This document shows, in pieces, positions 18,613 to 44,314 of a stretch of 64,000 nt of DNA (the first letter of the stretch is position 1; every line of letters begins with the position of its first letter). The stretch is from positions 274,679 to 338,678 of the forward strand of contig JAKLIQ010000001.1 in assembly GCA_022709525.1 (NCBI GenBank). The letters run 5' to 3'. The stretch is from Candidatus Omnitrophota bacterium. GTDB lineage: Bacteria; Omnitrophota; Omnitrophia; Omnitrophales; Aquincolibacteriaceae. The notes under the pieces were generated by a model. The model did no database searches, was not told where the DNA came from, and worked only from the letters and a program-made list of their open reading frames with translations. The position numbers and the translations under genes were made by a program.

Positions 18613-18984
18613 CAAGGTACCGACCACCCGGGTAAGAGCCCTGGAATGGTTAAGCTCATTGAAGGGTTAAAAACTTTGGGGATAAGGAAAAAGAAAACCG
18701 TCTTAAAGTTTTCTCGTCTTTTTTATGTTCGGTCTTCCAGGCGGATCCAGCCATTGCGGTGTGACGAAGAAATATTCGGAGAGGAGTAAGGGCCGAAAGA
18801 GCCCAGTATCGCTAGAACAAAAGATAGAAGAAACTATATTTCACTATAAACGCTAGTTTTTGCTATGAGGTATTTCGGGCAGGACTTCTTCAAAGGGTAT
18901 TTTAAGATGCTATTCTTTAGTCAGGATGAAGGAAGGTACCGTTGGAACAGCAATAAAGCGGAAGGTTACGCCAAACGGGTGAGA

Positions 18985-21900: not shown

Positions 21901-23319
21901 TTTTCCATTATTGATACTTACTTGTACGACGATGCCGTGATAAATCGATCAGAAATGCTGTCGCTTTTTGATCGGGTTGAAGATGATGGCATTGTTTCTA
22001 ACGTTGAGTTTAACATTTTAAAAGCGATACAAAACAATCCTAATCATTATCCGGAGCTTGATTATGTGCGTAATCTCACGGATGCGGTAGTCTTTGGTTC
22101 CCTTGCCAATGCCACCTACCAGGGAACTCTGTTGGGGAATCTTTATGGCGGCTCGACTGCAGACCACCTAGAGAAACTGGTGAATAAATGGTTCTTAGGT
22201 TTGGATCATCCGCTTGTGACTACAGATTACTATGGTACTCCTATTTATCAGCAAGTTGCCGGCAATCTTTTTGTGGATGGTGTAAGCTATGCCGATATAT
22301 CACAAGGTGTTATCGGGGATTGTTATTTAATAGCTGCGCTGGGTGAAACGGCGCTTCGAACTCCGGACATTATTACCGATATGTTTATTGACAATGGTGA
22401 CGGCACCTACACGGTTCGATTTTTTAAGGATGGCATGGCCGAATATGTCACTGTTGATCGTCAGCTCCCGGTTCTTTCAGAATTTTTGATTTATGGCGGT
22501 TCGGCTGGTGGAACAACACATATGGCTGATCCCGATGCTGAATTATGGGTAGCGTTAGCTGAAAAGGCTTATGCCCAAATAAATGCAAAATGGAATTCTT
22601 ATGCAGAAAACTCTTATGATGACATCGGTAGAGGCGGGTATATTGATCGAGCCCTTCAAGCGATTACCGGTTTTGCAACTAATACATATGATCTTTTGAA
22701 TAACTTTACCTCAATAGTGTCATCTTGGGCAGCCGGCGGTCTCATAGGGTTGGCGTCGCGGTACGATGCCGTTTCCCCCGTAGTGAGCGGCCACGCGTAT
22801 ACACTGGTAGATTACGATGCGGTAACGCAACTATTTACGCTCTTGAATCCATGGGGGCTCGTCATGACTAATCTTTTGACATTGACTTGGAGTGAGCTTG
22901 AACGGAGCTTCGAAAATTTTTCTGTGGCAACTGGAAGTACAAATACCACGGCGGCAGAACTTGTTTCCAACCCTCAAACAGAAGGCCAGTCCACAACCGG
23001 TTCTGCAGAGGTCGCGTCCCAGAGAAATCCATCTTATGAATCAGTTGTTCAGCTTGAAGCTGCGCCAAATAAAGATGCCGCTGAAAATGTGTTGGATGTG
23101 GGTCTCGAAAAGGAAGAGCAAGAACGACCTGAGGTGGTAGAAAAAAGCACTAAACGCTTTAGAAATCGTTCCGAAAGGCGCTCCAGGGACAGCTATCAGA
23201 CCAGCACTGTTGAAGCGAAACACTTTTTTAGCGAACCGCTTTCCTATCAAAGCGTACTCGATGATTTTTTGTTTCAAAACTTTATCGCACACATGACCCA
23301 AAAGCGTCTCACGGGCTAA
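18985..23319 (+). CDS. Secreted ~1440-aa tandem-repeat protein with a C-terminal calpain-type (peptidase C2-like) cysteine protease domain
   Basis: The likely start MIMRDAKKVNTKKLIAIFTAISLAFLQAAPVGVAA is a signal peptide. The ATG at 18985 follows GGTGAG; the ORF track starts at 18865. Four ~170-aa repeats contain TQFE(A/T)A(L/I)L...W(S/T)WTSADG.TTY.L.QD.R.VP.GIDG..EE..WSFE. The C-terminal domain has QGVIGDCYLIAALG (calpain catalytic Cys), ~165 aa later SGHAYTLVDYD (His), and LLNPWG (Asn). The gene is visibly more AT-rich than its neighbours. Confidence 0.7.
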   Translation: MIMRDAKKVNTKKLIAIFTAISLAFLQAAPVGVAANTPADQLDGSGVHVPVKSATDAPSEPSSAQAVIPPNFLMDTGGISKTEETEIPQNDEIQAVNQALDSDQQDAVSELAQYAQNLTDSAQHTQFEAALSEAAPDAQYRYRIGANGDQSWSWTSADGETTYTLHQDHRMVPIGIDGQMEEEILWSFEALSIVMKTEVEQCRSQLPADSLAYFEEALSQTDDTTVFSRTTIGTDTIYQWNDKSDASKLYTISFHPGPSGTIEAAFSVQIAMMPWGLTHLGPMLTDMAQRTQFETAILDVAPLTRDNFETLLLRTTDSIGRVTSWTWTSADGQTTYVLRQDRRIVPVGIDGETHEEVQWSFEIKSQISASEVQENINQIANEYVRDQAQQAFDQSVDNGQQTFTKIVNGGDIIYQWNDVMDASVVQTLFYAQSPMGGNWSFSTQTALAPQGLSHLAENLTEVAQRAQFETAILDAAPLSQDNWQTLLTRITDTNGRVTSWSWVNADGGTTYTLHEDKTTAGASTWSFVAVIQVSTEETRQELMSWGTTSPEHLQVFEQAVQLGAVFTKTISGDQVSYQWNLPMSGLAQYTQNLTDPEQRTQFEAALLAGGYSTQSFNGGGSNSWRWTSADGNTVYLLVNNKFQVPMPDGSQWFIDEWGFSAENQVSAQDIRDQLQNIGTPEERNMAENAIADGAVFKKITMGATAQFQWESVSDPELTYQLMIIDDRLSFATMFNQASDIQYDAQGNVISTTYRNYDWDSLLWLYMPSYATVYPSPSTIKYYDSQGNLLRELIWGEYGNRTLIVYGDASVMEIPGKVEVYSFDQNLYSTLYYDQRGFLISYEVLPTFMNQLRAAFPAFEVSSPVYISGSNPSLFQITITNPSPAMGALNQMSFHVDQEGQIDFDTLEITYEDTEFQWFGDQLLLGQVKDLQPNANDIEILTLISQLTIDYVDTNGTIQFTLNGTPYMADATLFSIIDTYLYDDAVINRSEMLSLFDRVEDDGIVSNVEFNILKAIQNNPNHYPELDYVRNLTDAVVFGSLANATYQGTLLGNLYGGSTADHLEKLVNKWFLGLDHPLVTTDYYGTPIYQQVAGNLFVDGVSYADISQGVIGDCYLIAALGETALRTPDIITDMFIDNGDGTYTVRFFKDGMAEYVTVDRQLPVLSEFLIYGGSAGGTTHMADPDAELWVALAEKAYAQINAKWNSYAENSYDDIGRGGYIDRALQAITGFATNTYDLLNNFTSIVSSWAAGGLIGLASRYDAVSPVVSGHAYTLVDYDAVTQLFTLLNPWGLVMTNLLTLTWSELERSFENFSVATGSTNTTAAELVSNPQTEGQSTTGSAEVASQRNPSYESVVQLEAAPNKDAAENVLDVGLEKEEQERPEVVEKSTKRFRNRSERRSRDSYQTSTVEAKHFFSEPLSYQSVLDDFLFQNFIAHMTQKRLTG

Positions 23320-27889: not shown

Positions 27890-30116
<2,227 letters not shown>

Positions 30117-30167
30117 ATCCTCTCCGGGCGATTGACATTTGAACTAAAAGAGATAGGATAGCCAGTT

Positions 30168-30189
30168 AATTGTTCCTGATTTCACAATT
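30168..30189 (+). promoter_or_regulatory. Candidate Rex operator (AATTGTtcctgatttcACAATT)
   Basis: The right half-site TTCACAA matches the Rex box consensus (TTGTGAA-n-TTCACAA) exactly and the left half TTGTTCC partially. Perfect 6-bp outer inverted repeat AATTGT/ACAATT. It lies 13 nt upstream of the NuoE-like gene and downstream of a TTGACA at 30132. Confidence 0.4.
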
Positions 30190-30201
30190 TCGAAGGGCCC
30201 G

Positions 30202-30765
30202 ATGAGCGTTCCATCGCAAAAAACCCAGCAAACCCAAGCCTCCTCCAGCCAACCCTGCGGCTGTCAGCCCTCCGAAGAGGAAATGCTTCGCAGTCTCGAT
30301 GCCGTGATCGACGGTTTCAAGAAAACCGATGGCGCCTTGATCCCGATCCTTCAGACCGCGCAGAACCTTTTCGGTTATCTCCCCGCCACCGTCCTCAAAC
30401 ACATCAGCATGCGGCTCAATATCCCTTATAGCGAAGTCACGGGGGTTGTCAGTTTCTACTCTTTCTTTTCCACCGTGCCGCGCGGGAAGCATGTCATTCG
30501 CGTTTGTCTCGGGACCGCCTGCTACGTCCGCGGCGGCAAGGAAGTGCTCGAGGCGTTTAAAAAGAACCTCAAGATCAACGTAGGAGAGACCACGCCCGAC
30601 CGGATGTTCTCGCTTGAAGTCGGACGCTGTTTCGGGGCGTGCGGCCTGGCGCCTGTAGCCATGATCGATGAAGATGTCCATCAGCGGGTCAAATCCGCCA
30701 AGATCCGCGAGATCATCAGCCAGTACCAGCACGAAGGAGAAGACGTCAAGGAGGCCAAGTCATGA
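30202..30765 (+). CDS. NuoE/HydC/HndA-like [2Fe-2S] thioredoxin-fold subunit (first flavin-based module)
   Basis: Matches the NuoE 24-kDa subunit pattern: VSFYSFF, CLGTACYVRGG and the later C-loop RCFGACGLAPVAMID. Confidence 0.8.
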   Translation: MSVPSQKTQQTQASSSQPCGCQPSEEEMLRSLDAVIDGFKKTDGALIPILQTAQNLFGYLPATVLKHISMRLNIPYSEVTGVVSFYSFFSTVPRGKHVIRVCLGTACYVRGGKEVLEAFKKNLKINVGETTPDRMFSLEVGRCFGACGLAPVAMIDEDVHQRVKSAKIREIISQYQHEGEDVKEAKS

Positions 30766-33700
30766 CCGGGTCTCCGCAAAAACTTGCTTCCATACAGGAC
30801 CTCAACAAGTTCAAAAAATCCGCCCTGGATGAAAAAAAGAAAAGCGCTTCGAAAAAAAAGATCCTCCTTTGCGCCGGCGCCGGCTGCATCGCGTCCGGTT
30901 CACTTCAGCTTAAAAAAGCCCTCACCGAAAAGATCAAGGATGAAAAACTGGATATCGAAGTGATCGAAACGGGATGTCTCGGGCCCTGCGCGCAAGGGCC
31001 GGTCATCGTGGTGGAGCCGGACCGTGTTTTCTATGAAAACCTCAAGCCGGCGGATGCTTCCGATATTGTGAACGAGCACCTCCGTAAAGGGAAGCCCGTC
31101 GAGCGGCTCATGCCCCGCGATATCAAGAGCGGCCAATCCGTTCCCAAGCAGGATCAGATGGATTTTTTCCAGAAGCAGACCAAAATCGTGCTCCGCAATT
31201 GCGGCGGGATCGATCCTTTAAAGATCGGCGACTACATCGCCCAAGACGGTTACCAGTCGCTGGCCAAGGTCCTGACCTCCATGAAACCGGAGGAAGTGAT
31301 CGAACAGGTCAAAAAGTCCGGGCTTCGCGGCCGCGGCGGCGCGGGATTTCCGACCGGCATGAAATGGGAATTCACGCGTAAGGCGCCGGGCGATGTCAAA
31401 TATGTGATCTGTAACGCGGACGAAGGGGATCCCGGCGCTTTTATGGACCGGAGCGTCCTGGAAGGGGATCCGCACAGTGTGATCGAAGGCATGGCGATCG
31501 CGGCGTTCGCGGTCGGAGCTTCGCGCGGCTTTGTCTATGTGCGCGCTGAATACCCACTTGCGGTTTCGCGCCTCACCAAGGCCATCGAACACGCCAACGA
31601 AACCGGCCTGCTCGGGAAAAATATTTTGGGGACCGGTTTTCATTTCGATCTTGAGATCCGCATGGGTTCCGGCGCTTTCGTCTGCGGCGAAGAAACAGCT
31701 CTTATGAATTCTATCGAAGGGAAGCGCGGCGAGCCGCGGCCAAGGCCTCCCTTTCCGGCCCAGAGCGGGCTATGGAATAAACCCAGTCTCCTGAACAACG
31801 TCGAAACCTACGCGAACATACCGGTCATCCTTTTAAAAGGTTCGGAGTGGTATGCGTCTCTGGGGACGGAATCAAGCAAGGGAACCAAGGTATTTGCTCT
31901 TGCCGGCGCTATCCGGAACACCGGCCTTGTGGAAGTGCCGATCGGAACACCTCTTGGGGAGCTCATTTATGATATCGGCGGGGGGATCAAAGGCGGCAAA
32001 AAATATAAAGCTGCGCAGATCGGAGGGCCTTCCGGCGGCTGCATCCCGAAAGAATATCTGAACGTTCCGCTGGATTACAAGACCTTGGAAGACCTCGGCG
32101 CCATCATGGGCTCCGGCGGCCTGATCGTGATGGATGAAGACTCCTGCATGGTGGATGTGGCGCGATTCTTCCTTGATTTCGTGCAGGATGAATCCTGCGG
32201 CAAATGCGTGCCGTGCCGCGTGGGGACCAAACGCATGCTCGAGATCCTGGAACGCATTTGTTCGGGGCAGGGGGAGGAAGGCGACGTTGAGAGGTTGATC
32301 AAGCTGGGCGGAGAGATTAAAGAGACCTCGCTTTGCGGTTTGGGCCAAACGGCTCCCAATCCCGTTCTTTCCACCATCCGCCATTTCCGCAAGGAATACG
32401 ATCAACATATTCGCGAAAAACACTGTGAAGCGGGCGTTTGTCCGTCCCTCGTGCGAGCTCCGTGTCAAACCGCGTGCCCCGCAGGAGTGGATGTTCCCGG
32501 TTTTGTGTCGCTGGTGGGAGAAAAACGTTACGCGGAGGCGCTCAAACTTCATCGCGAACGGAATCCCTTTGCCGCGGTGTGCGCGCGCGTCTGTTTTCAC
32601 ACTTGCGAGGATAAATGCCGGCGGGCGACGCTTGATGATTCCGTTTCGATACGCGGCATTAAACGTTTCATGGTCGACCAGGAAGTTGTGATCCAGGTGC
32701 CGGAGGTCCGTCACAATGAACAAAATGCCGCGCGCAAGATCGCGATCATCGGGGGAGGTCCGGCAGGGCTTTCCTGCGCTTATTTTTTAGCACGGCTTGG
32801 CTACCGGCCGACCGTTTTTGAATCAGAGCCGAGGCCGGGCGGAATGCTTGTTCAAACGATCCCGGCGTACCGTCTGCCGCGCGAAACGCTCGCCCGGGAA
32901 ATAAGAATGATCGAACAATTAGGCGTGACCATGGAGACCAACAAGCGGTTGGGTCGGGATTTTACGCTGCAGGAGCTTCGCGATAAAAAATACGATGCGA
33001 TCTTTATCGGGATCGGTGCTCCGGAGTCTTTCGGGCTTGGGATCGCCGGCGAAGACGCCGAAGGCGTCGTGATGGCGCTTCCGTTCTTGAGGGAATACAA
33101 CATCCGCGGGTCTGTTCCCGTCGGAAAACAAGTGGTCGTCGTAGGCGGCGGCAACGCGGCGATCGACGCGGCCCGGACCGCGCTTCGCTTGGGAGCCAAG
33201 ACCGTCACAGTGCTTTACCGGCGCAGCCAGGAAGAAATGCCGGCCTACGCGGAGGAAGTGCGCGAGGCGATCTATGAAGGGATCAAGTTGATGCCGCTCA
33301 CTCATCCCGTGGAGATCCTGAAATCGAAAGAAGGCAAAGTTTGCGGTGTCCAGTGCATGACGATGAAACTCGGCGAATACGATCGCAGCGGCCGGCGGTG
33401 CCCGACCGCGGACGGGGCCGACCAATTTAAATTAGAGGCGGACCAGGTGATCGTCGCGATCGGTCAAACGCTTCAGCCGGGGAAACTTTTTGAGCTCAAA
33501 GACGCCGAGATCAAGATGACGCAGCATAAATTCATTTATGCGGATTCCGTGACCGGACAAACTTCTGTTTCCGGTATTTTTGCCGGCGGCGATGCGGCGT
33601 CCGGCCCCTGGTCGGTGGTGGCAGCGATCGGCGCGGGGGAGCGCGCGGCTGTGGGGATCGATCATTATCTGACCGGCGAAGATCATGCCTTTTGGCGGGA

Positions 33701-33911
33701 GGAAAAAGTCGTGGATACGGATTTTGATCCCGATGTGGATCCGGTCCCTTACCCGCGGGAAGCCGTCCGTTCGATCCCGGTCGAGAAAAGGAAACATAAT
33801 TTCGACGAAGTCGAGCTTCCCTGGAATGAAAATGTGGCACAGCGCCAGGCCAAACGCTGCCTTCGTTGCGATTACGGGAAAACAGTGACCCGGAGAGGAA
33901 GCAAGTCATGA
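30762..33911 (+). CDS. Triple-fusion flavoprotein: HndB-like [2Fe-2S] thioredoxin domain + NuoF/HydB-like FMN-NAD(P)H subunit + C-terminal GltD/NfnB-like NADPH oxidoreductase
   Basis: The N-terminus has the CAGAGC...GCLGPC pattern. The NuoF core has GLRGRGGAGFPTGMKWEF and SCGKCVPCRVG. From ~aa 600 on there are CEAGVCPSLV..CQTACPAGVD cluster motifs followed by IAIIGGGPAGLSCAYFLARLGYRPTVFE and VVVVGGGNAAIDAA dinucleotide folds, as in NfnB/GltD. The start overlaps the upstream stop (ATGA). Confidence 0.8.
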   Translation: MTGSPQKLASIQDLNKFKKSALDEKKKSASKKKILLCAGAGCIASGSLQLKKALTEKIKDEKLDIEVIETGCLGPCAQGPVIVVEPDRVFYENLKPADASDIVNEHLRKGKPVERLMPRDIKSGQSVPKQDQMDFFQKQTKIVLRNCGGIDPLKIGDYIAQDGYQSLAKVLTSMKPEEVIEQVKKSGLRGRGGAGFPTGMKWEFTRKAPGDVKYVICNADEGDPGAFMDRSVLEGDPHSVIEGMAIAAFAVGASRGFVYVRAEYPLAVSRLTKAIEHANETGLLGKNILGTGFHFDLEIRMGSGAFVCGEETALMNSIEGKRGEPRPRPPFPAQSGLWNKPSLLNNVETYANIPVILLKGSEWYASLGTESSKGTKVFALAGAIRNTGLVEVPIGTPLGELIYDIGGGIKGGKKYKAAQIGGPSGGCIPKEYLNVPLDYKTLEDLGAIMGSGGLIVMDEDSCMVDVARFFLDFVQDESCGKCVPCRVGTKRMLEILERICSGQGEEGDVERLIKLGGEIKETSLCGLGQTAPNPVLSTIRHFRKEYDQHIREKHCEAGVCPSLVRAPCQTACPAGVDVPGFVSLVGEKRYAEALKLHRERNPFAAVCARVCFHTCEDKCRRATLDDSVSIRGIKRFMVDQEVVIQVPEVRHNEQNAARKIAIIGGGPAGLSCAYFLARLGYRPTVFESEPRPGGMLVQTIPAYRLPRETLAREIRMIEQLGVTMETNKRLGRDFTLQELRDKKYDAIFIGIGAPESFGLGIAGEDAEGVVMALPFLREYNIRGSVPVGKQVVVVGGGNAAIDAARTALRLGAKTVTVLYRRSQEEMPAYAEEVREAIYEGIKLMPLTHPVEILKSKEGKVCGVQCMTMKLGEYDRSGRRCPTADGADQFKLEADQVIVAIGQTLQPGKLFELKDAEIKMTQHKFIYADSVTGQTSVSGIFAGGDAASGPWSVVAAIGAGERAAVGIDHYLTGEDHAFWREEKVVDTDFDPDVDPVPYPREAVRSIPVEKRKHNFDEVELPWNENVAQRQAKRCLRCDYGKTVTRRGSKS

Positions 33912-35680
33912 CGAAAGTTTTGATCAATCACCAGGAGGTGGAAGTTCCCGCAGGAGCGACCATCCTTGAGGCGGCCCGGAAGCTTGGGGTGGAGATCCCG
34001 ACCCTTTGTTACCTCGAAGGGAAGCTTCCGATCGGCGCTTGCCGCGTTTGCCTTGTCGAAGTAGAAGGGGCGAAGCGCCTTGTGGCTTCCTGTTCCACGC
34101 CCGTGACGGAGGGGATGCGGGTCCATACCAATAATAAGAAAGTGCGCGAAGCGCGGCGAACGGTCGTGGAGTTGATCCTAAGCGAACACGAAGGGGCTTG
34201 CCAGTACTGCACGCGCAGCGAAGATTGCGAACTTAAAAAAATAGCGTCCCATTTAGGCATTGAGGATGTTCACTACAAAGGCGAGAAACCCCCGGTCCAT
34301 ATCGACGCAAGCACGCCCGCGCTTGTGCGGGATTCGGGCAAGTGTATCAAGTGCCGCCGCTGCGTGACAGTTTGCCGCGAAGTCCAGGGCGTTGGCGCGC
34401 TTTTTCCGCAAAACCGCGGTTATAAAACCGTGATCGGACCGGCTTTCGCGATGGACCTGGATCATGTCGCTTGCGTCCAATGCGGGCAATGCGCCGCCAT
34501 CTGTCCGGTCGGGGCGATCCAGGAAAAGAACGATATTGATAAGGTCTGGGAAGTGATCGAGAACGGGACCAAGCATGTTGTGGTGCAGACGGCCCCGGCG
34601 ATCCGGGCCGCCCTCGGGGAATGCTTCGGCTACTCTCCCGGAACGCTTGTCACAGGAAAAATGGTGACGGCGTTACGCCGGCTTGGCTTTAACGCGGTTT
34701 TTGATACGAATTTTGCCGCCGATCTGACCATTATTGAAGAGGGAAACGAGCTTCTGACGCGCCTTAAAAAGGCCCTTGTCGACAAAGAGCCCGTATCGCT
34801 TCCGATGTTCACGAGCTGCTCTCCGGGCTGGATCAAATTCGCCGAGTATTATTACCCGGAATTCCTGCCGAACCTTTCCACGTGCAAGTCGCCGCAGCAG
34901 ATGTTCGGCGCTCTGGCCAAAACCTACTATGCCGCGCAAAAAGGGATCAAGCCCGAGGATATCGTTGTGGTTTCGGTCATGCCGTGCACCGCGAAAAAAT
35001 TCGAAGCTCAACGCCCGGAAATGAACGCGAGCGGTTTCCAGGACGTCGATTATGTCCTCACGACGCGCGAACTCGGCTTCATGATCGAATCAGCCGGGAT
35101 CGATTTCAAGAATTTGGAAGATGGCCAAATGGATTCGCCGCTTGGCCTTTCAACGGGCGCCGCGGATATCTTTGCCAACACGGGCGGCGTGATGGAAGCG
35201 GCCTTGCGGACCGTCTATGAGGTTGTAACCGGCCGGGAATTTCCTTCCGCGGACCTCCGCCTGGCTCCGGTCGAGGGTCTTAAAGGCATTAAAGCCGCTT
35301 CGCTTGTGATCCAGGGGACGCTCCCTGAGTGGAATTTTCTTGAGAATGTTGAAGTGAAAGTCGCCGTGGCGCACGGCCTCGCGAACGCGGCCGATCTGCT
35401 GGACCAGATCAAGGAAGGAAAAGCCAGTTTTCATTTTATCGAGATCATGACCTGTCCCGGGGGCTGTATCGGCGGGGGTGGCCAGCCGCGTTACACGGAC
35501 GATTCGGTCCGTTTGGCGCGCATTAACGCCATCTACCAGGAAGATGCCGGAAAAAAGCTCCGCAAATCCCATACAAATCCCCAGATCCAGAAACTCTACG
35601 AAGAATACCTCAAGAAGCCGCTCGGGGAGCGGTCCCACCACCTGCTTCATACGCATTATCACGAACGGACCAAGGTTTAA
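33908..35680 (+). CDS. [FeFe]-hydrogenase large-subunit homologue (HydA-like) with a non-canonical L1 motif TSCSPGW
   Basis: N-terminal 2Fe-2S and two 4Fe-4S ferredoxin motifs are present. H-cluster motifs L2 (VMPCTAKKFE) and L3 (EIMTCPGGCIGGGGQP) are canonical. L1 reads FTSCSPGW (canonical TSCCPxW); the Ser codon TCT is at 34820-34822. The ATG overlaps the upstream stop (ATGA). Confidence 0.8.
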   Translation: MTKVLINHQEVEVPAGATILEAARKLGVEIPTLCYLEGKLPIGACRVCLVEVEGAKRLVASCSTPVTEGMRVHTNNKKVREARRTVVELILSEHEGACQYCTRSEDCELKKIASHLGIEDVHYKGEKPPVHIDASTPALVRDSGKCIKCRRCVTVCREVQGVGALFPQNRGYKTVIGPAFAMDLDHVACVQCGQCAAICPVGAIQEKNDIDKVWEVIENGTKHVVVQTAPAIRAALGECFGYSPGTLVTGKMVTALRRLGFNAVFDTNFAADLTIIEEGNELLTRLKKALVDKEPVSLPMFTSCSPGWIKFAEYYYPEFLPNLSTCKSPQQMFGALAKTYYAAQKGIKPEDIVVVSVMPCTAKKFEAQRPEMNASGFQDVDYVLTTRELGFMIESAGIDFKNLEDGQMDSPLGLSTGAADIFANTGGVMEAALRTVYEVVTGREFPSADLRLAPVEGLKGIKAASLVIQGTLPEWNFLENVEVKVAVAHGLANAADLLDQIKEGKASFHFIEIMTCPGGCIGGGGQPRYTDDSVRLARINAIYQEDAGKKLRKSHTNPQIQKLYEEYLKKPLGERSHHLLHTHYHERTKV

Positions 35681-35754
35681 CGCCGATTTTTTTCTTGCCT
35701 CACTATGAAAATTTTGATAATATCTCAATCGTTCGATTTTTCACGAATTCTTCT

Positions 35755-36372
35755 ATGAAGAAACTTCCCCGAAAGATCATCACAAGGGTCTTGCTTTACA
35801 TACGGACCCTCGAAAGCTTGATCAAGGAAAAGCGTTTCCTGGTCTCCTCGAAGCAGCTTTCCGAGATCACGGGGCTTTCGGACGTGAAGATCCGGAAGGA
35901 TATCTCGAATTTTAAAAAGATCGGAAAGCCGCGGATCGGTTATAAAACGCTTGATCTGAAGAGGACGCTTGAGAATTATCTGATCCAGGGCAATACGGTG
36001 CGCGTCGTGCTTTTTGGCGCGGGGAACCTGGGTTCGGCGATCCTGCGATACCCCGGATTCCGGAAGGGCAACGTGAGATTGGTTGCGGCGTTCGACGCGT
36101 TGCGGCGCAAGACCGGGAAGAAAGTCGGGGGCGTTCACATTTATCCGGTCGAGCGTTCGCCGGAGATCATCCGGCGGTGCCGGGCGGATATCGGGATCAT
36201 TGCCGTCCCCAAAGAACACGCTCAAGAAGTGGCGGATTTTATGGTATTATCGGGGCTGCACCGGATCATTAATTTTGCTCCTTGCCCGATCAGCGTGCCG
36301 GCCAAGGTCCAGGTCCGGAACATTGATTTTACGATTGAGTTCCTGTCGCTTTTCTGCGATACCCAGAAATAG
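35755..36372 (+). CDS. rex: Redox-sensing transcriptional repressor Rex
   Basis: N-terminal wHTH (IITRVLLYIRTLESL...FLVSSKQLSEITGLSDVKIRKDIS) and C-terminal Rossmann fold (VVLFGAGNLGSAILRY) characteristic of Rex/AT-rich DNA-binding protein. Confidence 0.8.
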   Translation: MKKLPRKIITRVLLYIRTLESLIKEKRFLVSSKQLSEITGLSDVKIRKDISNFKKIGKPRIGYKTLDLKRTLENYLIQGNTVRVVLFGAGNLGSAILRYPGFRKGNVRLVAAFDALRRKTGKKVGGVHIYPVERSPEIIRRCRADIGIIAVPKEHAQEVADFMVLSGLHRIINFAPCPISVPAKVQVRNIDFTIEFLSLFCDTQK

Positions 36373-36384
36373 ACGGAGGGAAAT

Positions 36385-36735
36385 ATGCGATACGCGACCC
36401 AAGAGACGCTCAAAGAATTCAACCGCCTGATGGTAAGCATCCGCAAAGCGGTGCCGAAAGAATACGACGCGTTCATGAATGAAAAAAAGGTCATGACGCG
36501 ATCCGGGAAGCTTCCCGAGAAGATGAAATGGCTGTTGCTTTTGACTGCCAGCGTGGCGCAAAAATGCCCCGTTTGCATTCCGCGTGCGGTCCAGCATTGC
36601 CTGGAAGCCGGTTGGACGAAAGAGGAAATGCTCGAGGCCTGCATGGTCGCGGTGCTTGTAGGCGGTTCGAGCGCCATGACGTATGTGACTGTTGCAGCCA
36701 AGGCGATCGAAGAGCTTCATAAAAAGAAGAAATAG
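36385..36735 (+). CDS. Carboxymuconolactone decarboxylase/AhpD-like family protein with CxxC
   Basis: ~116 aa; a CPVCIPRAVQHC motif within a helical AhpD-like core. Confidence 0.6.
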   Translation: MRYATQETLKEFNRLMVSIRKAVPKEYDAFMNEKKVMTRSGKLPEKMKWLLLLTASVAQKCPVCIPRAVQHCLEAGWTKEEMLEACMVAVLVGGSSAMTYVTVAAKAIEELHKKKK

Positions 36736-36771: not shown

Positions 36772-37263
36772 ATGGATAAAGCGGTGATCGAACAGGAAGT
36801 GCGGGAGATCGCGGATTCCTGGAAGGGTAAGGAAGGGAACCTTATCATGGTGCTCCACCAGATCCAGAACCGCTACGGTTATGTTCCGCGCGAAGTTTCG
36901 CTTGTTCTTTCCGAGATCCTTGATGTACCGCTTGCCCGCATCTACGAAGTGATCACTTTCTATCATTTTTTCCGCCTGACCCCGCCTGGCAAACACACGA
37001 TCTCCGTTTGTATGGGAACGGCCTGTTATCTCAAAGGAGGCGCCGAGATCCTGGGCGAATTAGAGCATCTTCTTTGTGTTAAGCCGGGGGAGACGACCAA
37101 AGACGGTCAATTCCATCTCGAGGTCGTGCGCTGTCTTGGCTGTTGCGGGCTGGCCCCGGTGGTGAAGATCGGTGAAAAAGTCTACGGCGGCGTGAAAAAG
37201 AAAGACGTCGGCGACATTATTACCCAGTATTCTGAGGATTCGGAAGCCAAGACGGCGGCCTGA
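36772..37263 (+). CDS. hndA: NuoE/HndA-like [2Fe-2S] subunit of tetrameric [FeFe]-hydrogenase
   Basis: VITFYHFF, CMGTACYLKGG and RCLGCCGLAPVVKI motifs; 163 aa. Confidence 0.8.
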   Translation: MDKAVIEQEVREIADSWKGKEGNLIMVLHQIQNRYGYVPREVSLVLSEILDVPLARIYEVITFYHFFRLTPPGKHTISVCMGTACYLKGGAEILGELEHLLCVKPGETTKDGQFHLEVVRCLGCCGLAPVVKIGEKVYGGVKKKDVGDIITQYSEDSEAKTAA

Positions 37264-37274
37264 GGAGAAAGTAT

Positions 37275-37625
37275 ATGGCGAAAATAACCAGGAAAGACCT
37301 TGAAGCTTTGAAGCAAAAACATACCGGCGAGGATCGTAATTGGATCCGCGTAGGCTTCAGCACCTGCGGGATCGCCGCGGGGGCCCAGGAAGTCTATGAC
37401 ACTCTTGTTGAGGAAAGCCGCAAGCACAATGCGGATGTGGAGATCAAAAAGTGCGGTTGCGTCGGGATGTGTTCGGCAGAACCGCTTGTGGAAGTCCACG
37501 TTAAGAACATGCCGACGGTCTTCTACGGCAAGGTCGACAAAGAAGTGGCGACCAAGATCATGGAAAAACATGTTTGCGGGAAAATGCTCGTCAATGACCG
37601 CATCTACGACATGAGGCTTTCTTAA
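37275..37625 (+). CDS. hndB: Small thioredoxin-like [2Fe-2S] ferredoxin subunit (HndB-like)
   Basis: 116 aa with the CGIAAGAQ...C GCVGMCSAEPLVEV cysteine pattern; sits between the NuoE-like and NuoF-like genes as in hndABCD. Confidence 0.6.
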   Translation: MAKITRKDLEALKQKHTGEDRNWIRVGFSTCGIAAGAQEVYDTLVEESRKHNADVEIKKCGCVGMCSAEPLVEVHVKNMPTVFYGKVDKEVATKIMEKHVCGKMLVNDRIYDMRLS

Positions 37626-37640
37626 AGGAAATCAGGGAAT

Positions 37641-39380
37641 ATGGCCAAAACCGTTTTTGTCAAAGACACCGCGATCACCGGAAAAGACAGAACCCGCGAT
37701 TTTTACGGATTCTTTCTTGGCGGCCTCAGAGAAAAGGGCCTTGAGAACGACGTTCAACTTGTTCGCGTCGCAGATATTGGCGTCTACGGCCAGGGCATGG
37801 TCGTACGGGTATTGCCTGAAGATTTTCTCTATGTCAATGTCCAGGATAGCGACATTCCTGCCGTCATTACCGAAAGCGTGATCGGCGGCAAACCGATCAA
37901 AGATAAACTTTTTACCCAAGCCTCAAAGCAAGCGCGCATTGTGCTTCGCAACTGCGGCGTGATCGATCCGGAAAGCATCGAAGATTACATCGCCCGCGAC
38001 GGATATCAAGCTCTCGCCAAAGTCCTCGGCGAATACACGCCCGAGAAAACCGCTCAGGAGATCAAGGCCTCCGGCCTTCGCGGCCGCGGAGGCGCCGGTT
38101 TTCCCACCGGAATGAAATGGGAGATCACGCGGAAAGCGCCGGGCGATCAGAAATACATGATCTGTAACGGGGACGAAGGGGATCCGGGCGCTTATATGGA
38201 TCGCAGCGTCCTGGAGGGCGATCCGCATTCGGTGGTCGAAGGGATGATCATCGGCGGCTATGCCATCGGCGCTTCCAAAGGTTATTTTTATATCCGGGCG
38301 GAATACCCTCTCGCGATCGCGAGGATCGAAAAAGCTATTGAGCAATGCCGGAAGCACGGGATCCTGGGTGAAGGCATCTTGGGATCCTCGTTTAATTTTG
38401 ATCTTGAGATCCGTCTCGGTGCCGGCGCGTTCGTTTGCGGCGAAGAAACGGCGCTGATCGCGTCAATTGAAGGGAAGCGCGGTTACCCGAGTCCGCGCCC
38501 TCCGTTCCCGTCCATTAAAGGTCTCTGGGGCAAGCCTACTTGCATTAATAATGTCGAAACCTTGGCGAATATCCCGGTCATTATTTTAAAGGGAGGTTCA
38601 TGGTTCGCCGGCATCGGGACCGAAGGTTCCAAGGGGACCAAGGTGTTCGCCGTAACCGGAAAAGTAAAGAATTCGGGATTAGTAGAAGTCCCGATGGGAA
38701 CAACGATCGAAGATATCGTCTATGGGATCTGCGGGGGAGCATTGAGCGGAAAATCCGTCAAGGCGATCCAGACCGGCGGCCCTTCGGGCGGTGTGATCCC
38801 CAAAGAATATTTCCAGACCAAAGTGGATTATGAAAGCCTCCAAAAAATGGGATCCATTATGGGTTCCGGCGGCATGATCGTGATGGATGAGGACGATTGC
38901 ATGGCGGATATTGCGAAATTCTATCTCGGATTTTGCGTCGATGAATCCTGCGGAAAATGCGCGCCGTGCCGTATCGGTGGAACGCAAATGCTCCGGCTCC
39001 TTAAGAAAGTCACGGATGGGGAGGGAACCCGCAAAGATCTGGACCAGCTCGAACAGATCTCGTTCGCGATGCAAAAGGCCTCGCTTTGCGGGCTCGGCCA
39101 GACGGCGCCGAACCCCGTGCTTTCCACTTTGCATTATTACCGCAGCGAATATGAAGCGCATGTCGACAAGAAGAAATGCCCGGCCTGCAAATGCGAAAAA
39201 CTGATCCGGTTCCTGATCATGAGCGAAAAATGCGTCAAGTGCGGCATGTGTTTCAAGGCGTGTCCGGTAGGCGCCATTTCGGGGAACCGTGAAAGCGGTT
39301 ATCTGATCGACCAGACGAAATGCGTCCGCTGCGGGCAGTGTTTCGAGGTCTGCAAACCGCGCGCGATCAGCCGCAGCTAA
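37641..39380 (+). CDS. hndC: NuoF/HydB/HndC-like FMN- and NAD(P)H-binding subunit with C-terminal 2x[4Fe-4S] ferredoxin domain
   Basis: GLRGRGGAGFPTGMKWEI, SCGKCAPCRIG, and C-terminal CVKCGMCFKACP / CVRCGQCFEVC motifs. Confidence 0.85.
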   Translation: MAKTVFVKDTAITGKDRTRDFYGFFLGGLREKGLENDVQLVRVADIGVYGQGMVVRVLPEDFLYVNVQDSDIPAVITESVIGGKPIKDKLFTQASKQARIVLRNCGVIDPESIEDYIARDGYQALAKVLGEYTPEKTAQEIKASGLRGRGGAGFPTGMKWEITRKAPGDQKYMICNGDEGDPGAYMDRSVLEGDPHSVVEGMIIGGYAIGASKGYFYIRAEYPLAIARIEKAIEQCRKHGILGEGILGSSFNFDLEIRLGAGAFVCGEETALIASIEGKRGYPSPRPPFPSIKGLWGKPTCINNVETLANIPVIILKGGSWFAGIGTEGSKGTKVFAVTGKVKNSGLVEVPMGTTIEDIVYGICGGALSGKSVKAIQTGGPSGGVIPKEYFQTKVDYESLQKMGSIMGSGGMIVMDEDDCMADIAKFYLGFCVDESCGKCAPCRIGGTQMLRLLKKVTDGEGTRKDLDQLEQISFAMQKASLCGLGQTAPNPVLSTLHYYRSEYEAHVDKKKCPACKCEKLIRFLIMSEKCVKCGMCFKACPVGAISGNRESGYLIDQTKCVRCGQCFEVCKPRAISRS

Positions 39381-39409
39381 AGTTTATATAGAGAAAAAAG
39401 GAAAGATCC

Positions 39410-41161
39410 ATGGTTAAGGCTGTTATCAACGGATTAAAGGTTGAAGTGCCCGAAAAGACGACGATCCTCGATGCCGCGCGTAAGGCGCAGATCAAGATCC
39501 CGACCCTTTGCAAACATCCGGATTCTTACCTTCACGCCTCCGCCGCCTGCGGTATCTGCCTTGTGAGGGTCAAGGGTTCAAAGAAAATGCTTCGGGCTTG
39601 CTGCACGCCGCTTGAAGAAGGCATGGACATCATCACTCATGATCCCGAGATCGTGGCGATCCGGCGGACCGTTGTGGAGCTTTTTCTTTCCAATCATCCG
39701 AATGAATGTTTAACCTGCGGCCGGAACAATAATTGCGAACTGCAATCCCTTGTGGCGGATTTCGGGATCCGTGAAGAGTTTTATGAAAAGATCGTAAAAG
39801 ATATCCCCAAGGATGATTCGACAGGGAATATTGTGCTGGAGCCCCGGAAATGCATCAATTGTGCGCGCTGCGTCGATGTCTGCCAAAACGTTCAAGATGT
39901 ATGGGCGCTTACGTTCCTCCACCGCGGGTTCAATACAAGAATGGCTCCCGCCGGCGATATCAGTCTTGCAGACTCGCCTTGCGTTCGTTGCGGTCAGTGC
40001 GCCGCGCATTGTCCGACCGGAGCGATCTTCGAAAAAGACGATACCGTGCTCGCCTGGAAAGCGCTTCGCGATCCGGAACAGTATTGCGTGGTTCAGATCG
40101 CGCCGGCGGTCCGCGTCGCTCTTGGCGAGGCCTTCGGTTTTCCGCTCGGCGCTAATGTGACCAAAAAAATCTACACCGCCCTCCGCCGCATGGGCTTCAA
40201 GGCGATCTTCGATACCAATTTCAGCGCCGATGTGACCATCATGGAGGAGGCGAGCGAATTCGTCGAACGTTTTGCGCACAAAAAGGGCCCTCTTCCGCTT
40301 ATTACGACCTGCTGTCCCTCATGGGTGGATTTCATGGAGAAATTCCATCACGATATGATCCCGCATTTTTCATCCGCGAAATCACCTCACGAAATGATGG
40401 GTGTTCTGGTGAAGACCTATTACGCCGAAAAGAACAAGCTCGATCCGGCGAAATTAAAGGTGATTTCCGTCATGCCATGCACGGCCAAGAAATTTGAGAT
40501 CTCGCGCAGCCATGATATGTCGGCTTCCGGGTTCCAGGATGTCGACGTGGTGCTCACAACACGCGAGCTTGCCCGCATGATCAAACAAGCCGGTATCGAT
40601 TTTTCGAATCTTCCGGAAGAAGATAGCGATCATATCCTGGGAGATTACAGCGGCGCTGGAACGATCTTTGGAGCTACGGGCGGCGTGATGGAAGCGGCAT
40701 TGCGCACCGCTTATTCTTTTGTGACCGGCAAGAAACTTCCCAAAGTGGAGTTTGAAAATGTTCGCGGCTTGAAAGGCGTTAAGGAAACTTCGATCAAGAT
40801 CGAGGGCGCGGAAGTGAAGATCGCGGTCGCGCACGGTTTGGCGAACGTAGAATATGTGCTTGATCAAGTCCGCAAAGCCCAGAAAGAAGGCAAGCCGCTC
40901 CCGTATCATTTTATCGAGGTCATGGCTTGTCCCGGCGGTTGCGTGGGCGGCGGCGGCCAGCCTTATGGCGTGACAGACGAGCTTCGCACCGCTCGCGCGA
41001 AAGGGCTTTATTCGGACGACGAAGCGCAGACCGTTCGCTGCTCGCATGAAAATCCGTACGTGCAGCAGCTCTATAAGGAGTTTCTCGGTAAACCGTTGAG
41101 CGAAAAGGCGCATCACCTGCTTCATACGAAATATCAACCGTTACCGATCTATCGGCGGTAG
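39410..41161 (+). CDS. hndD: [FeFe]-hydrogenase catalytic subunit (canonical H-cluster motifs)
   Basis: N-terminal 2Fe-2S + 2x4Fe-4S domains; L1 TTCCPSW, L2 VMPCTAKKFE, L3 EVMACPGGCVGGGGQP. Confidence 0.85.
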   Translation: MVKAVINGLKVEVPEKTTILDAARKAQIKIPTLCKHPDSYLHASAACGICLVRVKGSKKMLRACCTPLEEGMDIITHDPEIVAIRRTVVELFLSNHPNECLTCGRNNNCELQSLVADFGIREEFYEKIVKDIPKDDSTGNIVLEPRKCINCARCVDVCQNVQDVWALTFLHRGFNTRMAPAGDISLADSPCVRCGQCAAHCPTGAIFEKDDTVLAWKALRDPEQYCVVQIAPAVRVALGEAFGFPLGANVTKKIYTALRRMGFKAIFDTNFSADVTIMEEASEFVERFAHKKGPLPLITTCCPSWVDFMEKFHHDMIPHFSSAKSPHEMMGVLVKTYYAEKNKLDPAKLKVISVMPCTAKKFEISRSHDMSASGFQDVDVVLTTRELARMIKQAGIDFSNLPEEDSDHILGDYSGAGTIFGATGGVMEAALRTAYSFVTGKKLPKVEFENVRGLKGVKETSIKIEGAEVKIAVAHGLANVEYVLDQVRKAQKEGKPLPYHFIEVMACPGGCVGGGGQPYGVTDELRTARAKGLYSDDEAQTVRCSHENPYVQQLYKEFLGKPLSEKAHHLLHTKYQPLPIYRR

Positions 41162-41246
41162 AATATCATTTCATAGCATTGCAAGTTCCTGAAGAAAAGG
41201 CCCTGTAAAGGGCTGACGCTAAGGGAAGGAAAATGGAAAAGTTTTG

Positions 41247-41285
41247 AATCCCAGTTTCTTTCCTAAGGAACTGGGATTTTTTTTA
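41247..41285 (+). terminator. Rho-independent terminator after hndD
   Basis: Stem aatcccagtt / aactgggatt with a 12-nt loop, followed by a run of eight T residues. Confidence 0.6.
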
Positions 41286-41301: not shown

Positions 41302-41553
41302 ATGACGGATAAAAGGCTTGGATTTGTCGGCATTATCATCGAAGACAGGAAAAAAGCCGCGCATGCGGTCAACGATCTTCTTTCAGAATTCGGGGATATG
41401 ATCGTCGCCCGCGTCGGTCTGCCGTACCGGGAACGCCATTGTTCCGTGATCACGCTCATCGTGGACGCAAACACGGATGAGCTCGGCGCCTTGACGGGGA
41501 AGCTCGGCGCCCTGGAAGGCGTTTCCGTCAAATCAGCGCTCACAAAATCCTAA
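41302..41553 (+). CDS. Small ACT/NikR-C-like putative [FeFe]-hydrogenase system regulator
   Basis: 83 aa (GFVGIIIEDRKKAAHAVNDLLSEFGDMIVARVGLPY...CSVITLIVDA) immediately upstream of hydF. Proteins of this size and pattern accompany hydEFG in many genomes. Confidence 0.5.
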   Translation: MTDKRLGFVGIIIEDRKKAAHAVNDLLSEFGDMIVARVGLPYRERHCSVITLIVDANTDELGALTGKLGALEGVSVKSALTKS

Positions 41554-41561
41554 AGGCATTT

Positions 41562-42824
41562 ATGGAAAAAACTCCAAAATCGATGAGACTTCAGATCGGT
41601 ATCTTCGGCAGGACCAATGTCGGAAAATCCAGCTTTCTCAACATGGTCGCGGGCCAGGACGTGGCGATCACTTCGCCGGTGCCGGGGACAACGACGGATG
41701 TGGTTGAAAAAGTGATGGAGCTTCTGCCGGTCGGCCCGGTGGTGTTCCTGGATACCGGCGGTCTTGACGATGATTCCACGCTCGGTTCCAGGCGCGTGGA
41801 GCGGACCCGAAAGATATTTGACCGCTCGGATGTTTCCATCCTCATTCTGGACGCGGATCGCTGGACGGAATTTGAAGAAGAAGTGGTTCGCGAAGCGCAG
41901 GCGAGGAAAAGCCCGCTCATTCTTGTCGTGAATAAAAGCGATCTTACGCCGCCCTCCGCGGTTTTTCTGGAGAAAATAAAACAAAAAACCTCCCGCATTC
42001 TGGTCTGTTCGAGCACGGACCGGGCGCGGCGCGACGAGTACGTGAATCTTCTGAAGCAATTTTTACTCGAGGTCTGCCCCGAAGATTTCCTAATGGCGCC
42101 CGCGATGCTTGGGGACCTCATGCCGAAAGGAGGACTTGCCATCCTGATCATCCCGATCGATTTTGAGGCGCCTAAGGGCCGCATCATCCTGCCCCAAGTC
42201 CAGGCGATCCGCGATGCCCTGGACCATGATTCGATGACGCTTGTGGTCAAGGAAAGCGAATATAAGGACGCGTTACAAAAATTAAAAACACCTCCCGACC
42301 TTGTGGTCTGCGATTCCCAAGTGGTCGACCGGATGGTCGCTGAGACGCCGCCCGGCGTGAGGTGCACGACTTTCTCCATTCTTTTGTCACGCATTAAAGG
42401 GGATATTGCCGAAATGACAAAGGGCGCGCTCGCGGTCGAGAGCCTCAAAGAAGGCGATAAGATCCTTATTTCCGAATCCTGCAGCCATCACGCGATCGAA
42501 GGGGATATCGGCCGGATCAAGATCCCGAAATGGATCCAGAAATACTTGGGCTGCGAGATCAAGATCGGCGTTTGCGCGGGGCGGGATTTCCCGGACGATC
42601 TGAAAGATTACAAACTGATCATTCAGTGCGGTTCCTGCATGCTGACGCGACGGGAAACGCTGGCGCGTATCCAGAAAGCAAAGCAGGCCGGGGTTCCGAT
42701 CACCAATTACGGGCTGTGCATTTCCTACCTCCAAGGAGTGCTCGAACGAGTGATAGAGCCTTTTCCAGATGCCCTTAAAGCGTTTCAAGAAAATAAAATC
42801 AATATCAAGGAAATCCTGCGATGA
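41562..42824 (+). CDS. hydF: [FeFe]-hydrogenase maturation GTPase HydF
   Basis: G1 motif GRTNVGKSS, G3 LDTGG, NKSD G4-like motif, and the C-terminal cluster-binding region with CSHH...C...C. Confidence 0.85.
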   Translation: MEKTPKSMRLQIGIFGRTNVGKSSFLNMVAGQDVAITSPVPGTTTDVVEKVMELLPVGPVVFLDTGGLDDDSTLGSRRVERTRKIFDRSDVSILILDADRWTEFEEEVVREAQARKSPLILVVNKSDLTPPSAVFLEKIKQKTSRILVCSSTDRARRDEYVNLLKQFLLEVCPEDFLMAPAMLGDLMPKGGLAILIIPIDFEAPKGRIILPQVQAIRDALDHDSMTLVVKESEYKDALQKLKTPPDLVVCDSQVVDRMVAETPPGVRCTTFSILLSRIKGDIAEMTKGALAVESLKEGDKILISESCSHHAIEGDIGRIKIPKWIQKYLGCEIKIGVCAGRDFPDDLKDYKLIIQCGSCMLTRRETLARIQKAKQAGVPITNYGLCISYLQGVLERVIEPFPDALKAFQENKINIKEILR

Positions 42825-44305: not shown

Positions 44306-44314
44306 CGATCGGCC

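Follow-up and report, generated by a model that had tools for sequence, protein, structure and literature searches.

A predicted [FeFe] hydrogenase of Omnitrophota with a GltD-type cassette in its HydB subunit and a possible link of H2 to both NAD(H) and NADP(H)

A 64,000-nucleotide stretch of DNA from Candidatus Omnitrophota bacterium (assembly GCA_022709525.1, contig JAKLIQ010000001.1, positions 274,679 to 338,678; hereafter ‘the window’, in which all genes and sites placed below by coordinates are read on the forward strand) encodes a module of three translationally coupled genes at 30202–35680: hydC, a hydB::gltD fusion and hydA, with a 4-bp overlap at each of the two junctions. We propose, tentatively and at slightly less than even confidence, that this trio is a cytoplasmic [FeFe] hydrogenase of the HydABC/BfuABC type in which the ferredoxin arm has been swapped for an NADP(H) arm, and that it would couple H2 to NAD(H) and NADP(H) independently of ferredoxin. 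Judged by their residues, three catalytic sites are intact, namely the H-cluster in HydA, a flavin mononucleotide (FMN)/NAD(H) site in the NuoF core and a flavin adenine dinucleotide (FAD)/NADP(H) site in the GltD cassette; by the same measure the HydBC bifurcation core is retained, with clusters C1, B1 and B5 and the His/Cys-ligated B2. The architecture is already published in silico (2018, 2024), and the window trio adds an Omnitrophota copy.

The module was first singled out in a prediction made from the DNA alone, which described a NuoE-like subunit, a triple fusion and a HydA homologue; Pfam domain annotation bears out all three genes and their domain content. That original prediction hesitated between a transhydrogenase of the Sporomusa-type Nfn (Stn) kind and an NADP-coupled bifurcating hydrogenase, and the second reading fits the evidence.

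Architecture of the HydB–GltD fusion

The fusion (bfuB, 30762–33911) is 1049 residues long. Pfam places a thioredoxin-like 2Fe-2S domain (residues 27–105), the Complex1_51K/NuoF FMN domain (183–354), SLBB and NADH_4Fe-4S (465–549) in its N-terminal part, followed by Fer4_20/DPD_II (552–641) and a Pyr_redox_2 FAD/NAD(P) fold (659–959). Residues 1–565 are an ordinary HydB, whose best solved relatives are the HydB of HydABC (7q4v_B, E=6e-236) and the NiFe-HydB of A. mobile (7t2r_B). Matches to HydB and to StnB stop at about residue 565, right after the B2 motif H549-x5-C555-x4-C560, and a sequence search of solved structures found no chain that covers the whole fusion. Beyond residue 565, Pfam detects no Fer4 dicluster domain, and the GltD cassette lies there instead. 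NCBIfam holds no model specific to the fusion, so the protein is annotated simply as ‘NuoF’.

Conservation was assessed in an alignment of the window fusion with 80 orthologues (81 sequences). The ligands of B1 and B5 and the eight cysteines of the cassette are invariant or nearly so. B5 lies in the N-terminal thioredoxin-like [2Fe-2S] domain (30840–31076), with C37, C42, C72 and C76 each conserved in 79–81 of the 81 sequences. The NuoF core (31308–32408) carries the FMN/NAD(H) site, marked by GRGGAGFPTG and CNADEGDPGAF, together with the B1 [4Fe-4S] ligands C479, C482, C485 and C525. The B2 site combines C462 and C500 of the NuoF core with three C-terminal ligands, H549, C555 and C560 (32406–32441); these five residues align with C438, C476, H525, C531 and C536 of A. 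mobile HydB and are invariant except for C500 (Cys in 78 sequences, Thr in 3). We considered C555 and C560 as ligands of the first GltD cluster instead and rejected this assignment, since the alignment with A. mobile HydB identifies them as B2 and the CxxC missing at this point is found at the C terminus. The FMN/NADH loops, the FAD GxGxxG and the NADPH motif are strongly conserved among the orthologues. The dinucleotide-binding residues of the GltD part, whose absence on closer alignment would have told against the original prediction, are thus intact and conserved.

The circularly permuted cassette of GltD/NfnB type (32457–33869) has two [4Fe-4S] clusters (C568, C572, C607, C611, C615, C619, C1033 and C1036), the FAD motif GGGPAG and the NADPH motif GGGNAAID...YRR. 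It opens 8 residues past C560, at C568-x3-C572-P, and this CxxxCP aligns onto the CxxxCP of the first ferredoxin motif in the HndC encoded elsewhere in the window. The start of the cassette thus coincides with the expected start of the B3/B4 ferredoxin domain, and on these alignments it is a substitute for the C-terminal B3/B4 2x[4Fe-4S] ferredoxin domain of HydB.

The permutation is visible against both T. maritima NfnB and the NfnB of the window itself: about 45 N-terminal NfnB residues (...RNFxEV...RCLxC) are found at the fusion's C-terminal end, at residues 1006–1036. The best solved relatives of the cassette are 9bov_A (E=1.7e-113) and 8oh5_C (E=6e-98), with T. maritima NfnB at 3e-88. The StnC-type inserts 8oh5_C, 9bov_A and 9n5u_A score 383, 363 and 332 bits (scores not tied to the order of the chains), against 300 for NfnB. 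We take 9bov, annotated ‘molybdopterin oxidoreductase’, to be C. saccharolyticus NfnABC, and 9n5u (NfnA/NfnB) to be an archaeal Nfn-Bfu. The same permutation, with the same start (R-x-P-C-x3-C-P-A) and end (R-C-L-x-C), is present in the GltD inserts of StnC (8oh5_C, 101–566), 9bov_A (101–567) and 9n5u_A. These shared boundaries in StnC and in the fused HydB suggest one mobile NADPH module, reused by plugging it into two different ports of a single bifurcating HydBC core.

The HydC and HydA subunits

HydC (bfuC, 30202–30765) is a NuoE/HydC-like protein of 187 residues (2Fe-2S_thioredx, PF01257, E=5e-50), whose stop codon overlaps the start of the fusion. The ligands of its C1 [2Fe-2S] cluster, C102, C107, C143 and C147, are present.

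HydA (bfuA, 33908–35680) is a 590-residue catalytic subunit of M3-type [FeFe] hydrogenases; the listed open reading frame begins further upstream, at a TTG at 33866. Its Pfam domains comprise Fer2_4, a NuoG-type His-ligated 4Fe-4S domain, a 2x[4Fe-4S] dicluster, Fe_hyd_lg_C (E=5e-98) and Fe_hyd_SSU. The best solved relative is 7q4v_A (E=2e-188), and the score against NF040763, the NCBIfam model for NADH-dependent group-A6 [FeFe] hydrogenases, is 894.6 at a cut-off of 765. A sensory (group C) hydrogenase was rejected because the protein passes this catalytic model and has no PAS or kinase domain. The three H-cluster motifs are P1 TSCSPGW (34811–34831), P2 MPCTAKKFE and P3 EIMTCPGGCIGGG, and all four cysteine ligands (in TSC, MPC and CxxGC) are present. 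By our own reading of the alignments, HydA also retains the residues aligned with E279, E282, R286 and S319 of the CpI proton pathway.

The departure lies in P1, where C304 is an H-cluster ligand and S305 occupies the position of the proton-relay cysteine (CpI C299). All solved hydrogenases with printed alignments have TSCCP here, and the second hydrogenase of the window has TTCCPSW in its HndD. TSCSP occurs in 68 of 71 readable orthologues and TSCCP in the other 3 (a further 5 were unreadable or truncated), so the Cys-to-Ser exchange is a trait of the clade and no accident. Our literature search for TSCSP found only a Melainabacteria note. Engineered Cys-to-Ser exchanges leave 14–16% of H2 oxidation in CaI and CpII and 0.03–1.3% of H2 evolution across CaI, CpI and CpII, raising the bias towards oxidation 11- to 260-fold. 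These figures hint that a natural Ser relay would tilt the enzyme towards H2 uptake.

Distribution of the fusion

A scan of a species-genome collection returned at least 599 matched stretches, of which 592 were confirmed to encode a full-length relative of the fusion. Locus comparisons used the best 80 of these at least 592 confirmed stretches, at 65–91% identity. The 80 loci span about ten phyla and include Omnitrophota, Spirochaetota, Hydrogenedentota, Planctomycetota, Kiritimatiellia, Verrucomicrobiota, Lentisphaerota, Fibrobacterota/Chitinispirillaceae, Bacteroidota and Ignavibacteria; the nearest fusions among the matches listed are from metagenome-assembled genomes (MAGs) of Candidatus Omnitrophota, at 87–91% identity. 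Every sufficiently complete locus has the order hydC-(hndB-like bfuD)-fusion-hydA. An assembly or frameshift artefact was rejected, as the identical 1049-residue protein is encoded on six independent contigs (that of the window and five others, from JGI, ENA and NCBI) and there are hundreds of orthologues. The contig that holds the window is 551 kb long and derives from JGI metagenome 3300010429.

The optional HndB-like (BfuD) gene stands as a separate gene between hydC and the fusion in loci L010–L012, L016, L019, L020, L023, L027, L028, L030, L031, L039 and L076. These loci belong to Hydrogenedentota, Planctomycetota/Phycisphaerae and several unclassified MAGs, and their fusions already carry a thioredoxin-like domain of their own; L010–L012 have an additional gap of about 1.6 kb ahead of the fusion.

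An exhaustive representative search found further full-length NuoF::GltD fusions at 34–45% identity, in differing contexts. The fusion of L084 (506–5697) is accompanied by NuoE and a 403-residue iron–sulfur protein that resembles the N-terminal part of HydA, without the H-domain. Those of L085 (312–3482), L086 (6001–8997) and L087 (6001–9333) stand alone, and L088 (5239–15156) has two tandem NuoE–fusion pairs followed by a small Fer2_4 iron–sulfur protein and a Glu_synthase (PF01645) protein. The distant fusions may be uncharacterised NADH/NADPH-linked enzymes. Such varied company indicates that the NAD(H)-FMN/FeS/FAD-NADP(H) unit is reusable and has one of its uses in the HydA-linked clade.

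Gene neighbourhood

The trio lies directly downstream of an NfnAB-like pair (27890–30116) and upstream of rex, as had been noted from the DNA alone. The pair consists of nfnA-like (27890–28717) and nfnB-like (28719/28731–30116) genes, and an 85-bp gap separates nfnB from hydC. The gene for the redox-sensing repressor Rex (35755–36372; 191.7 bits with NF003995, cut-off 126) stands directly 3′ of the trio, and its product is a candidate regulator of it. Downstream, the order is rex, a CMD/AhpD-like gene, hndABCD, a TM1266-like gene, hydF, hydG and hydE. The canonical hydrogenase of HndABCD type, also anticipated by the original prediction, occupies 36772–41161, and its HndC retains the 2x[4Fe-4S] C terminus. 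The H-cluster maturases hydF, hydG and hydE (41562–45373; HydG scores 455 bits against TIGR03955, cut-off 312) lie within the window, so the island brings its own H-cluster maturation genes.

Several smaller features complete the region. A CMD/AhpD-like (PF02627) CxxC protein of 116 residues is encoded mid-island between rex and hndA (36385–36735), a strong terminator-like hairpin with a 15-bp stem lies between hndD and the maturase genes (41246–41279), and the TM1266-like small protein opens the maturase block (41302–45373). Elsewhere in the window are two large open reading frames, of 2515 residues (77–7624) and 1484 residues (18865–23319); the latter has a calpain-type Peptidase_C2 match in precomputed annotation.

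Much of this neighbourhood varies among the 80 loci. A rex homologue adjoins the trio in about 17, and nfnAB does so only in the close Omnitrophota relatives L001, L002 and L006 and in L033. The dedicated redox hub proposed in the original prediction is consistent with the gene neighbourhood of the window, although its nfnAB component is confined to those four loci.

Promoter and Rex-box-like sites

A promoter-like site, TTGACA-16 nt-TAGGAT (30132–30159), lies in the nfnB–hydC gap and matches 10 of 12 consensus positions. The promoter scan as a whole was not enriched (11 sites against 10.5 in shuffles), and the support for this site is positional. Just downstream, 15 nt 5′ of the hydC ATG, is the half-degenerate Rex-box-like palindrome TTGTTCCTGATTTCACAA (30170–30187). 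The palindrome foreseen in front of the module therefore exists, in weak form: it has 2 mismatches to TTGTKAAN4TTMACAA and is the sole such site in the window, where 0.74 are expected by chance, and we rejected it as strong evidence, one site against that expectation not being significant alone. Relaxing the limit to 3 mismatches yields 9 Rex-like sites in the window (6.5 expected), and no other promoter region of the island contains one of those gained.

Comparison across loci adds to this picture. L001, L002, L005 and L006, all Omnitrophota orthologues, have similar sites 5′ of hydC; those of L004 and L032 (both 13/14) and of L027 and L060 (both 12/14) are stronger, and sites of at least 11/14 are present in 12 of 75 loci (16%) compared with 9 of 400 background windows (about 2%). 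The putative Rex box of the window is thus weakly supported by its own sequence and backed by cross-locus enrichment, and expression of the trio is probably tied to the NADH/NAD+ ratio via Rex, with better support in some orthologous loci than here. The hydA–rex intergenic region (35681–35754) has a TTCAC half-site immediately ahead of the rex ATG as well as an imperfect palindrome, TTGATAATATCTCAA, features that may reflect autoregulation of rex.

Proposed mechanism and alternatives

In the mechanism that we propose, the gated low-potential branch would run from C1/B2 by way of both cassette clusters to FAD and on to NADP+, instead of to ferredoxin, and the net reaction would be 2 H2 + NAD+ + NADP+ ⇌ NADH + NADPH + 2 H+, with no ferredoxin involved. 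In StnC, the FAD is non-bifurcating and NADPH electrons go via two cassette clusters into the HydBC-type core, a path that we count in favour of the proposed wiring. Taking the in-vivo potentials of Schut et al. (NAD about −280 mV, NADP about −380 mV), we calculate a mean for the pair of about −330 mV, which balances H2 at about 150 Pa. The trio would then lie between an NADH-only hydrogenase, with a calculated set-point of about 3 Pa, and a HydABC using NADH and ferredoxin, at about 0.15 bar. Above ~150 Pa the enzyme would take up H2, and at sediment-level H2 it would evolve H2 from NADH and NADPH. For the direction in vivo the pointers diverge: evolution is favoured where environmental H2 is low, whereas the Ser relay hints at uptake. 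The nfnAB and hnd neighbours, together with Rex, hint at a role in fermentative redox balancing.

Several points weigh against this proposal. We infer stoichiometry, coupling, nucleotide specificity and ferredoxin independence all from sequence. The engineered Cys-to-Ser exchange loses at least 99% of H2 evolution, so that it is uncertain how active the natural Ser enzyme is and which way it runs. NADP+ lies only ~100 mV below NAD+ and, compared with ferredoxin, would exploit a smaller part of the bifurcation span, making a simpler, uncoupled enzyme plausible. The more distant NuoF::GltD fusions occur without any HydA, and a NuoF::GltD module can serve other ends, such as NADH/NADPH exchange or the feeding of a glutamate-synthase domain.

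The uncoupled enzyme would be a dual-cofactor, non-bifurcating hydrogenase in which NAD(H) at the FMN and NADP(H) at the FAD each exchange electrons with the H-cluster independently, much like the HydAB(C) of S. wolfei and S. aciditrophicus but using both nucleotides. It draws on the facts that characterised HydB homologues without B3/B4 are non-bifurcating, that both nucleotide sites are intact and that the in-vivo gap between NADH and NADPH is only about 100 mV. We nevertheless think it unlikely. The characterised non-bifurcating homologues also lack the B2 His and the B2–B5 clusters, and the invariance of the B2 ligands and of B5 over about ten phyla speaks for a gated core that still operates here; moreover, an ungated FMN–FeS–FAD wire would short-circuit the NADPH and NADH pools. 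A different departure would let the GltD FAD bifurcate as in NfnB while ferredoxin still docks, either at the distal [4Fe-4S] of the cassette (as in NfnB) or at surface clusters of HydA, so that H2, NAD, NADP and ferredoxin are all linked. This is the ‘FAD plus FMN-FeS’ idea of Zheng & Huang, who postulated a second centre (PMC11406978), and also the ‘hub’ of the original prediction. The eight-Cys set of the cassette is common to T. maritima NfnB and the window NfnB (our own count from alignments), an Arg (R704) aligned with NfnB R201 and StnC R239 (‘PAYRLP’) is kept and conserved, and both nfnAB and a ferredoxin-type Hnd enzyme are encoded alongside. Yet in StnC, the closest solved relative of the cassette, the FAD is non-bifurcating despite the conserved Arg, the trio has no NfnA-like [2Fe-2S]/FAD partner to take the high-potential electron, and the canonical ferredoxin site B3/B4 is gone; we regard four-substrate coupling as distinctly unlikely.

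Two further alternatives lean on the kinship of the cassette to Stn. The trio might run the Stn reaction with protons in place of ferredoxin, 2 NADPH + NAD+ + H+ → 2 NADP+ + NADH + H2, with NADPH as mid-potential donor, NAD+ as high-potential acceptor and H+/H2 as the low-potential couple, and could then release H2 even at high H2 pressure. The order of potentials at 1 bar H2, NAD (−280) > NADPH (−380) > H2 (−414), would permit this, and the cassette is of Stn type. Characterised Bfu enzymes, however, take the mid-potential substrate via the A subunit and B1 and let low-potential electrons exit through C1/B2 and the HydB C terminus; in the window trio the wiring is reversed, with the H-cluster placed on the A branch and NADPH on the C-terminal one, and this makes the reaction improbable. 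The remaining possibility, a true Stn-like transhydrogenase that interconverts NADH, NADPH and ferredoxin around a HydA-like iron–sulfur scaffold with an inactive or sensory H-domain, strikes us as very improbable. The exchange of the proton-relay Cys for Ser, the loss of most H2 evolution when that exchange is engineered, and the pairing in L084 of a distant fusion with a protein that lacks the H-domain all speak for such a scaffold. Set against them are the four H-cluster cysteines, P2, P3 and the other proton-pathway residues, which are kept across phyla, the score of HydA above the cut-off of a curated catalytic-hydrogenase model and the presence of HydEFG in the window; the ferredoxin site of Stn is also absent, and the trio lacks the architecture that defines Stn.

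Ferredoxin-independent coupling to both nucleotides thus remains the reading that we favour. In its fuller form, the trio would be unprecedented among Bfu-type enzymes in having a pyridine nucleotide at the end of its gated low-potential branch, and NADH + NADPH ⇌ 2 H2 would be obligately coupled in hundreds of species of about ten phyla; on the present alignments we hold this fuller claim to be possible, though appreciably short of an even chance. We know of no hydrogenase for which this type of reaction has been described. A bolder form still, in which the FMN–FeS centre and the GltD FAD both bifurcate in one complex, may also apply. If the proposal is true, uncultured anaerobes of the Omnitrophota, Planctomycetota, Kiritimatiellia, Spirochaetota, Hydrogenedentota and other groups would exchange H2 with both nicotinamide pools without ferredoxin, at an H2 set-point around 10^2 Pa, a range in which we know of no hydrogenase class, and genome-based models of H2 thresholds, NADPH supply and fermentation balances would change. 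The trio may also serve as a natural experiment on the Bfu mechanism, pairing an unchanged core with a different low-potential acceptor and a natural Cys-to-Ser relay. Its value is limited by the earlier descriptions of the architecture and by a function that we deduce wholly.

Comparison with known systems

The trio shares with Stn and Nfn-Bfu (8oh5, 9bov, 9n5u) a HydBC-type module joined to a permuted GltD cassette that has two [4Fe-4S] clusters and sites for FAD and NADPH, and a NuoE-like [2Fe-2S] subunit, here HydC. The ‘Stn-like’ label of the original prediction therefore holds for the cassette, which matches Stn/Nfn-Bfu best and has the same permutation and boundaries, and fails for its placement on the NuoF subunit and for the HydA as third subunit. 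The prediction had also pictured Stn itself wrongly: the GltD module belongs to StnC, StnB keeps B3/B4 and there is no H-cluster. In S. ovata, the HydBC-type bifurcating module is formed by StnAB; StnB resembles an ordinary HydB, is 584 residues long and keeps the C-terminal B3/B4, where ferredoxin is reduced, and StnC carries the GltD module as an insert at residues 102–565 beside NuoG-like and inactive FdhF-like domains, with no H-cluster domain. The window cassette, by contrast, occupies the ferredoxin position of the B subunit, whereas that of Stn lies in the A subunit as a mid-potential NADPH input; the window HydB is without the B3/B4 that StnB retains for ferredoxin; and in the window the A subunit is a whole HydA, including Fe_hyd_lg_C and Fe_hyd_SSU, whereas StnC is FdhF-like and without an H-cluster. 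Membership in Stn was rejected on two defining features, B3/B4 on the NuoF-like subunit and a cassette in an H-cluster-free A subunit, neither of which is found here. On this comparison, the trio has the Stn-type cassette attached to the same core through another port. With NfnAB, the cassette shares the two [4Fe-4S], FAD and NADPH fold of NfnB/NfnL (4ylf_B, 5jca_L) and is 40% identical to the NfnB of the window. It differs from NfnB in that the N-terminal ~45 residues, including the first CxxC, have moved to the C terminus of the fusion. Pfam finds no NfnA-like domain or partner within the trio, and a separate nfnAB pair lies upstream.

Like the bifurcating HydABC enzymes (7q4v, 8a6t and 7p5h, with T. 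maritima among the sources), the trio has HydC, a HydB core with B5, FMN/NADH, B1 and B2, and an M3-type HydA; it differs from them in having an NADP(H)/FAD cassette in place of the B3/B4 domain and TSCSP instead of TSCCP in P1. Schut et al. (2022) define their family by the presence of B1–B5 and an invariant six-cluster BfuBC core, and report that nearly every bifurcating BfuB has the B2 His (8 of 1558 lack it), which is absent in non-bifurcating homologues; their B2 ligand set allows Thr in place of A. mobile C476. The window trio has C1, FMN/NADH, B1, B5, the B2 site and P1–P3 of HydA, and lacks B3 and B4 in a C-terminal ferredoxin-like domain; with these replaced by Fer4_20 and Pyr_redox_2, the fusion falls outside the strict definition. 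It is not covered by Schut et al. (2022), in which the terms ‘NfnB’, ‘SudA’ and ‘glutamate synthase’ are absent. A HydB without B3/B4 is also found in the non-bifurcating, NADH-dependent HydAB(C) of Syntrophus aciditrophicus and Syntrophomonas wolfei. Those enzymes are ferredoxin-independent and, besides B3/B4, are missing B5, the B2 His and a second nucleotide site; the S. aciditrophicus HydAB does not use NADP+. The window fusion, unlike them, has the B2 His, B5 and a second nucleotide site.

The original prediction had turned in part on whether the same fusion was already described, and it is, in silico only. Our literature search found no biochemical or structural study of the fusion architecture, and Losey 2020, Liang 2019 (on Nfn fusions), Welsh 2025 and the T. 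saccharolyticum Tsac_1705 paper make no mention of it. In Schouw et al. 2018 (PMC6163223), the same architecture appears in the second trimeric hydrogenase of the cultured Vallitalea guaymasensis L81 (peg.3894-3896). Zheng & Huang 2024 (mSystems, PMC11406978) describe a ‘sub-type I BfuABC’, a group A3 [FeFe] hydrogenase of Hydrogenedentota and five other phyla, with the order C-(D)-B-A, a BfuB that has DPD_II (Fer4_20) and a FAD/NAD(P) domain instead of B3/B4, Ser as a common residue at the fifth P1 position, and relatives without BfuD in other phyla; a second, FAD-based bifurcation centre is speculated there. The term NADPH is absent from that paper, and the accessible parts of the two articles report no biochemistry and contain no mention of the Stn-type permutation of the cassette or of B2-ligand retention. 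The window trio has the features of sub-type I BfuABC, namely a BfuB with DPD_II and FAD/NAD(P) domains, the C-B-A order and Ser at the fifth P1 position. It is orthologous to the Hydrogenedentota exemplar: L031 (SKQZ01000091.1; gene order rex-C-D-B-A, fusion 69% identical to that of the window) is a contig of the exemplar MAG of Zheng & Huang, CSSed162cmA_463. Set beside these published copies, the window one resides in Omnitrophota, is without BfuD and is flanked by nfnAB, rex and hndABCD.

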